Origin: Escherichia coli
Lineage (GTDB): Bacteria > Pseudomonadota > Gammaproteobacteria > Enterobacterales > Enterobacteriaceae
Reading direction: 5' to 3' (one strand)
Assembly (NCBI RefSeq): GCF_003334355.1
Contig: NZ_QOWP01000024.1
DNA: 64,000 bases
Under the pieces are notes generated by a model. The model was not told the DNA's origin. It was given only the letters and a program-made list of their open reading frames with translations, and did no database searches. Positions 52,064-52,190 of the stretch are shown here, piece after piece (position 1 is the first letter of the stretch; every line of letters starts with the position of its first letter). The translations under genes were made by a program, and so were the position numbers.

Positions 52064-52134
52064 TTGTGATTTTGACCTTAGTCTATGCGCTCCATTCACG
52101 AAAATTGCGCGGATAATTATTTTGTGAAAGCTAT

Positions 52135-52190
52135 TATCCTACACCTGTAAGAAAATCCGCGCACAATTGAAGCCAGAGTCTTATTTTTTA
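52135..52190 (+). repeat. Copy A of a roughly 50-bp repeated intergenic motif (CTACAnCTGTAAGAAAnTCCG...TGAAGC..CAGTC)
   Basis: cctacacctgtaagaaaatccgcgcacaattgaagccagagtcttatttttt closely resembles the sequence at 54790-54850. Confidence 0.4.

Follow-up and report, generated by a model that had tools for sequence, protein, structure and literature searches.

Two intergenic sequences that closely resemble one another follow ydeQ and ydeP in the 64,000-nt stretch of Escherichia coli chromosomal DNA analyzed here (the window), and the locus raises the question of what a sequence repeated in this way does beside these genes. The initial annotation described a motif of about 50 bp lying immediately downstream of ydeQ and ydeP, and considered that it might be a small repetitive element, a 3' UTR-derived sRNA or a site for a shared regulator. 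Both of the sequences it quoted are present, with small offsets. Copy A (52138-52189) is positioned within the 333-bp gap between the ydeQ stop codon, which ends at 52063, and the ydeP ATG at 52397, and copy B (54797-54847) within the 247-bp gap between the ydeP stop codon, which ends at 54676, and the safA ATG at 54924; their distances past the stop codons, about 73 bp for ydeQ and about 119 bp for ydeP, are roughly as had been described. Because ydeR, ydeQ, ydeP, safA and ydeO are all encoded on the + strand, each copy constitutes the upstream control region of the next gene, copy A that of ydeP (52397..54676, +; 759 aa) and copy B that of the operon in which safA (54924..55121, +; 65 aa) is followed by ydeO (55196-55957, +). 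The placement downstream of ydeQ and ydeP is thus correct positionally, but functionally the copies belong upstream of ydeP and safA-ydeO. The 5.2-kb region around the repeat pair was matched in 5398 of 5426 complete E. coli genomes.

A direct-repeat search returned 52138-52186 and 54797-54845 as the longest direct repeat in 52000-55250, with 49 ungapped nucleotides at 78% identity, which agrees with a size of about 50 bp; the similarity, however, extends over about 105 bp, from 52136 to 52241 against 54795 to about 54902, at a constant offset of 2659. The copies are identical at 67 of 105 positions, and at 52 of 87 past the 18-bp core. Local alignment of the ydeQ-ydeP and ydeP-safA intergenic regions scored 33 (z = 15), compared with 10.96 +/- 1.47 and a maximum of 18 in 1000 dinucleotide shuffles, and the downstream parts with the 18-bp core removed still scored 19 versus 8.85 +/- 1.31 (z = 7.8). 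The full extent of similarity defines module A (52136..52241, +), which takes in the EvgA box discussed below, a spacer, the core promoter and some 22 nt at the 5' end of the ydeP transcript, and its paralogue, module B (54795..54900, +), before safA-ydeO; the two modules would drive ydeP and safA-ydeO, respectively.

Each copy opens with an 18-bp palindrome, ATCCTACAccTGTAAGAA in A and TGCCTACAgcTGTAAGAA in B, and it is this palindrome that forms the conserved core, CTACAnCTGTAAGAA, to which the initial annotation had drawn attention. The palindrome of copy A (52136..52153, +; ATCCTACA-cc-TGTAAGAA) lies at about -83 to -66 from the ydeP start, and that of copy B (54795..54812, +; TGCCTACA-gc-TGTAAGAA) lies upstream of safA-ydeO, each with one mismatch to TTCYTACANNTGTARGAA. 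The first bases of the ydeP box are AT in this strain and AG in K-12. Masuda and Church in 2003 and Itou and colleagues in 2009 reportedly described the EvgA box as TTCYTACA-NN-TGTARGAA, and the promoters of ydeP, safA-ydeO, emrKY, yfdX, frc and yegR are said to have been recognized as EvgA-activated by Masuda and Church in 2003 and by Itou, Eguchi and Utsumi in 2009. The consensus that we rebuilt de novo from seven sites (14 half-sites) reads TTCCTACA.

The distribution of TTCYTACANNTGTARGAA was scanned in the 64-kb window and in 44 kb of K-12, the latter consisting of segments of 19 kb and 25 kb. At up to three mismatches, no match beyond the two copies was found in the 64-kb window. Four matches, compared with 0.28 expected, were present in K-12 2478000-2497000, one in the emrK/evgA intergenic region, one before frc and two before yfdX, and the sole match in K-12 2155000-2180000 lies upstream of yegR, which we take to be an EvgA target. 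In total, seven matches were obtained versus about 1.1 expected, all of them intergenic and upstream of named EvgA targets, and the 44 kb of K-12 sampled contained no EvgA box outside the upstream regions of the EvgA regulon. Here the target status of emrKY, yfdX and yfdWUVE (frc) was taken from the cited papers. EvgA has been reported to regulate ydeP and emrKY directly (PMC8174306), to bind the safA-ydeO promoter (PMC9496106) and to bind inverted repeats before yfdX and yfdWUVE (PMC3720670), and among the genes induced when evgS is constitutively active, every directly regulated one had an EvgA site and the others had none (PMC4283999). Judged from the occurrence of the same palindrome at other EvgA-induced genes, the palindrome that opens both copies is the EvgA box, and both copies are members of the EvgA-activated promoter set. 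We are therefore highly confident that in E. coli copy A serves ydeP, and copy B the safA-ydeO operon, as an EvgA-dependent promoter, a reading for which the repeat, its position, the shared palindrome, the conservation and the lineage restriction come from this analysis and direct control by EvgA comes from the literature. Of the three suggestions made initially, the shared regulator site is the one borne out, with the core being the EvgA box and the rest the promoter that it controls. As EvgA targets, the ydeP and safA promoters are an already known part of the acid-resistance circuit, and no new element is involved.

The core promoters are arranged alike in the two modules. An extended -10, TG-t-TAATTT, is found for ydeP at 52203..52211 (+; TG at 52203-52204 and TAATTT at 52206-52211), and another, TG-t-TATATT, for safA-ydeO at 54862..54870 (+), at the same distance from the box (offset 2659). 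The ydeP leader probe of a 2024 study spanned -178 to +10 relative to the ATG (PMC11210196), and because the 5' end of this probe falls at 52219, 8 nt after TAATTT, we infer that it marks the transcription start and that ydeP starts at about 52219. With the same -10 at the same distance from the box, safA would start at about 54877-54878 and have a leader of about 46 nt. Given these starts, the box centre is at about -74.5 in both promoters. The sequences 17 bp upstream of the -10 hexamers, ATTTTT for ydeP and ATTTCC for safA, make poor -35 elements, which would be expected of promoters that depend on an activator; a consensus promoter scan gave no promoter for safA, and -10-like hexamers are present 49-62 nt past the box in all six EvgA promoters compared here. 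In genomic SELEX, TTGAAG-16-TATATT (52167-52194) was listed as an RNA polymerase site for ydeP (PMC3946193), and this pair is also picked by the consensus promoter scan in copy A, which returned nothing in copy B. If it were active, the EvgA box would be positioned at about -56. We rejected it as a shared promoter, since no counterpart exists in safA and since in L004, a divergent Escherichia genome, the -10 hexamer of the pair lacks the critical A; it is at most a secondary promoter.

We propose that an EvgA dimer would bind the 18-bp inverted repeat of each copy, with its centre about 74.5 bp upstream of the start, and that bound EvgA would activate sigma-70 RNA polymerase at the extended -10 (TGnTAATTT or TGnTATATT) in place of a usable -35, with the remaining ~85 bp of each copy presumably providing the spacer and core promoter and about 20 bases at the start of the transcript. 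The two copies would then be the points of entry for the acid sensor EvgS/EvgA, from which it would turn on three proteins: YdeP, SafA (the PhoQ connector) and the regulator YdeO. As RefSeq genomes carry no annotation under these sites, and none was seen under the module in the genomes matched, the assignment is also of value for annotation.

The initial annotation had proposed to look for further copies and for conservation among related genomes. A blastn search (11-nt words) located the 116-bp module in 5324 of 5426 complete E. coli genomes; the median number of places per genome was one and the maximum three. Both intergenic regions were aligned for the window, K-12, O157:H7, IAI1, HR5-1, ATCC 25922, Z1323 and the divergent Escherichia L004, the YdeP of which has 96% amino acid identity, and the modules are conserved across all eight. 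No change was seen among these genomes in the box half-sites, TGAAG, AGTCYTATTT or the extended -10. In box A the variable positions are 8-10 (CACC, CACT, CATC and CGCC), which cover the final base of the left half-site plus the 2-bp spacer, and box B varies only in its first base and one spacer base; in both promoters the TG and the -10 hexamer are invariant and the 'n' of TGn is variable. Conserved half-sites and -10 together with a free spacer and a free 'n' are what protein-DNA contacts would be expected to leave. From the box to +22, 80% of columns are invariant for ydeP and 73% for safA, compared with 51% upstream of the box in both. In addition, positions identical between the copies are enriched among the columns that are invariant in both orthologue sets (51/16 versus 15/24; odds ratio 5.1, p = 1.7e-4). 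L004 retains both EvgA boxes and has indels just upstream of both and none within the modules, which in this divergent genome are the best-conserved part of both intergenic regions.

No EvgA box was found within 3 kb of ydeP in Edwardsiella anguillarum or Yersinia rohdei, which fits reports that only E. coli and Shigella have EvgAS and safA-ydeO (PMC5706723; PMC9496106). The protein itself occurs more widely. YdeP shares 85% amino acid identity with its homologs in three Edwardsiella species (L005, L006 and L008), 67% with that of Yersinia rohdei (L007) and 56-57% with those of Raoultella and Tatumella, and the protein search gave no match in other Escherichia species; so patchy an occurrence suggests that ydeP has been transferred horizontally. 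An E. coli plasmid of 92.6 kb, pKFu015_2 (L061; NZ_CP147132.1, 25818-33872), carries ydeP between two IS3000 (Tn3-like) transposase genes. There the match to the promoter module begins at window position 52191, so that the EvgA box is cut off and the -10 and leader are retained; by its arrangement, this ydeP seems to have been mobilised and to have lost its coupling to EvgA. A YdeP 100% identical to that of the window was also encountered in a MAG filed as 'Candidatus Nanosynbacter' (L003; JARKOR010000108.1), which is almost certainly E. coli contamination of that bin.

Beyond the box, the ydeP and safA promoters resemble each other far more than the other EvgA promoters do: their similarity past the box is strong (z = 7.8), whereas other EvgA promoter pairs reach z <= 3.3. 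Specifically, ydeP and yegR have in common ATTTAAACACTA(T)GAGAG at the -10 and start (z = 3.3), frc and yfdX have in common GCTCTCTGATT (z = 2.0), and the remaining pairs are at background. The likeliest reason for the resemblance of the copies is that one promoter cassette was duplicated and that selection has since preserved the positions they share. The yegR promoter of K-12 (L054, 13340-13431, minus strand) has a near-perfect EvgA box, TTCCTACttaTGTAGGAA, followed by ATCCTATT at the register of the safA block GTCCTATT, and its -10 and start, TATATTTAAACACTAGAGAG, are nearly identical to those of ydeP, TAATTTAAACACTATGAGAG. By this likeness, the yegR promoter may be a third copy of the same cassette.

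The alternative that survives best leaves EvgA in place and adds a second regulator, whose operator would be made up of the pair-specific blocks TCCG, TGAAGC, CAG and, after the start, GATGCTTA. These blocks are common to ydeP and safA and are not shared by the other EvgA promoters, and the positions common to ydeP and safA are preferentially invariant among orthologues. Such a factor might be PhoP or whatever mediates the negative feedback that depends on YdeO; both PhoP and YdeO are reported to repress the safA promoter (bioRxiv 10.64898/2026.05.06.723403) and YdeO to repress ydeP indirectly (PMC11210196), which would suit it, and a PhoP-box-like direct repeat with three mismatches, TGATTAacgatGCTTAA, is located at 54879-54895. 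However, at three mismatches the PhoP-box scan is non-specific, giving 214 matches in the window against 178 expected, and the ydeP counterpart of the repeat is poorer still. No known motif was matched to TGAAGC. A duplicated cassette, moreover, accounts for the pair-specific similarity without an extra factor, and we therefore consider a second regulator unlikely.

Three further sites of possible regulatory interest were observed. A perfect match to the PhoP-box consensus, TGTTTAgtcacGGTTTA (0 mismatches, with about 0.03 expected in 64 kb as calculated from the degeneracy of the pattern), lies at 48691-48707, upstream of ydeS and probably inside the fimbrial usher gene ydeT. Upstream of box A, TCCATTCACGAAAATTGCGCGG (52091-52113) is largely conserved even in L004, where the neighbouring sequence has diverged, and upstream of box B, CGCGCAATTTGCTCACATGGA (54739-54759) matches the reverse complement of TCCATTCACGAAAATTGCGCGG at 76% and is not conserved; TCCATTCACGAAAATTGCGCGG might be where another factor binds at ydeP alone, or it might be fortuitous. 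Just before box B, at 54778-54788, stands TATAAGATATA, located 10-17 bp upstream of the box and invariant from TAAGATATA on in 8/8 genomes, with variable surroundings. Within it, TATAAGAT matches the EvgA half-site TGTARGAA at 6/8 positions and, by this resemblance, may be an extra upstream EvgA half-site at the safA promoter.

An RNA element ending the ydeQ and ydeP transcripts, such as a 3' UTR-derived sRNA, is much less probable. The copies do lie 70-120 bp past a stop codon on the coding strand, and the scan predicts no + strand terminator in the interval from ydeQ to copy A, both of which would suit such an RNA. Yet in a scan of 52000-55250 no + strand terminator is predicted after either copy, the copies fold no better than shuffled sequences (z = +0.09 for A and +0.58 for B, or -1.3 and +0.9 with flanks), and they have no structure in common. 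Copy B, moreover, lies 75 bp past a strong terminator-type hairpin of ydeP (54690-54720, +), which has a 12-bp perfect stem, a fold of -17.5 kcal/mol (z = -5.4) and, in L004, a changed loop on a preserved stem. We infer that this hairpin, although it is not followed by a T-run, terminates the ydeP transcript and so separates it from module B. Rfam at E <= 1 gave nothing on either copy in 51500-55500; the one match returned, to OxyS, was below threshold and lay within ydeQ on the opposite strand. The conservation pattern described above, with half-sites kept and the spacer and the TGn 'n' free, is likewise that of protein-DNA contacts, and taken together these results make an sRNA very improbable.

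The idea of a small dispersed element, such as a REP, a MITE-like element or an IS remnant that landed after two genes, drew on the existence of two similar intergenic copies and on the imperfect inverted repeat that the initial annotation had noticed around copy A. That inverted repeat does exist, with arms of 8-9 bp, TTGCGCGGA at 52105-52113 and TCCGCGCA at 52156-52163, but it is found at copy A alone; its fold as RNA is no more stable than those of shuffles (z = -1.3), and in L004 its arms lie 12 bp further apart because of an insertion and one arm carries a substitution. The right arm is simply the block beginning with TCCG that is also present in copy B, and the copies are not bounded by terminal repeats. 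Furthermore, the blastn search (n = 5324 genomes) detected the module at a median of one place per genome, with at most three and no dispersed copies; both copies stand at a fixed register to a conserved -10, and the box is common to unrelated promoters of one regulon. A dispersed element is accordingly even harder to credit than an sRNA. Finally, chance similarity is hardly conceivable, for although both regions are AT-rich and the 17-nt core pattern at three mismatches reached two matches in 2/100 shuffles, the alignment score of 33 (z = 15) exceeds the maximum of 18 in 1000 shuffles, the modules are conserved in a divergent lineage and the same palindrome recurs at five other EvgA-regulon sites. 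EvgA-dependent promoters remain the reading adopted for both copies.

The leaders that these promoters would transcribe have features of their own. The 178-nt ydeP leader (52219-52396) has a minimum free energy of -40.9 kcal/mol (z = -3.4 versus shuffles) and looks structured by prediction. A predicted long-range helix joins GAUGAUGC (52225-52232) with GCAUCAUC (52343-52350) and is invariant in the eight genomes; a 14-bp hairpin at 52246-52277 shows one compensatory AU-to-CG change in ATCC 25922 (L059) and Z1323 (L060), and a hairpin at 52286-52305 shows a G-U-compatible change in L004. CsrA has been found not to bind the ydeP leader (PMC11210196). For safA, an in-frame ATG lies 36 nt upstream of the annotated start (54888-54923), about 10 nt downstream of the predicted transcription start, and would give a 77-aa product (MLNVIRLINIFE + SafA); a 7-nt insertion in this stretch of L004 argues against translation from it.

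The two modules agree with the known EvgA-activated promoters in their 18-bp inverted repeat, in the genes concerned and in lying upstream of them, and nothing about them is different in kind. In a wider comparison, operators of the NarL/FixJ family are 7-2-7 inverted repeats bound by a response-regulator dimer, and the EvgA box resembles them in being a palindromic pair of 7-8 bp half-sites with a freely varying 2-bp spacer; it differs from them in its half-site sequence and in belonging to a regulon restricted to E. coli and Shigella.

A further comparison is that with BvgA of Bordetella pertussis, the homologue after which EvgA was named. Six EvgA promoters (ydeP, safA, yegR, frc, yfdX-proximal and emrK) were anchored on the box. 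In all six, CA occurs at 9-10 nt past the box, and (G/C/A)TC(Y)(T/G)ATT occurs at a fixed register 25-32 nt past it; the best 7-mer window after the box has an information content of 6.0, compared with shuffle maxima of 3.0 +/- 0.4 (0/2000), in a set that is not independent, as ydeP/safA and frc/yfdX look like paralogous pairs. When a PWM from the 14 primary half-sites was run over the 60 nt after the box, its mean peaked at index 25 (family-wise p = 0.0045) and at index 3 (p = 0.026), two positions 22 bp apart and both oriented as the upstream half-site, with low absolute scores and six promoters that are partly paralogous. No partner half-sites for the two blocks were seen in the six promoters. 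In module A the corresponding features are a weak half-site-like block, TCCGCGCA (52156..52163, +), which lies 3-10 nt after box A and ends in CA, and a second block, GTCTTATT (52178..52185, +), which covers about -41 to -34 in the ydeP promoter and does not vary among orthologues; their counterparts after box B are TCCGTTCA (54815..54822, +) and GTCCTATT (54837..54844, +), the latter invariant in the eight genomes.

At Pfha, BvgA has been reported to occupy an upstream high-affinity site as a dimer and to be followed by weaker dimers at 22-bp spacing down to the -35, with TAAGAAATTTCCTA as the primary site and TAAGAAA / TTTCCTA as the half-site words (PMC7250471). The BvgA promoters Pfha, Pfim3 and Pptx and the EvgA promoters are alike in having a far-upstream high-affinity inverted repeat and a poor -35. 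The half-site words are also related, as the EvgA box ends in TGTAAGAA and begins with TCCTA, and to the 22-bp spacing of BvgA dimers may correspond the weak half-site-like blocks of the ydeP and safA modules, which are 22 bp apart and extend from the box to about -34. On the other hand, the EvgA half-sites face the opposite way (TTCCTA...TAAGAA versus TAAGAAA-TTTCCTA in BvgA) and are separated by CA-NN-TG, and, unlike in BvgA sites, only the upstream half of each putative secondary EvgA site resembles the consensus. By analogy with BvgA promoters, the blocks at 3-10 and 25-32 nt after the box would be secondary EvgA contacts, and such weak half-site-like blocks 22 bp apart may be the novelty of these promoters. 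We tentatively put forward the joint hypothesis, which we regard as possible rather than probable, that the ydeP, safA and, in part, yegR promoters are copies of one ~105-bp cassette, responsive to EvgA, that was duplicated while E. coli assembled its lineage-specific acid-resistance circuit, and that EvgA promoters in general carry an array of phased weak half-sites in steps of 20-22 bp from the box to about -34. On this hypothesis the pair-specific blocks of ydeP and safA might also act as an operator through which YdeO-dependent shut-off reaches both promoters. The fixed-register blocks and the cassette paralogy make this a testable hypothesis about the contact between EvgA and RNA polymerase and about the wiring of a lineage-specific regulon; if the array is real, EvgA would work not as a single distal dimer but, as BvgA does, as a dimer array reaching the -35 region.
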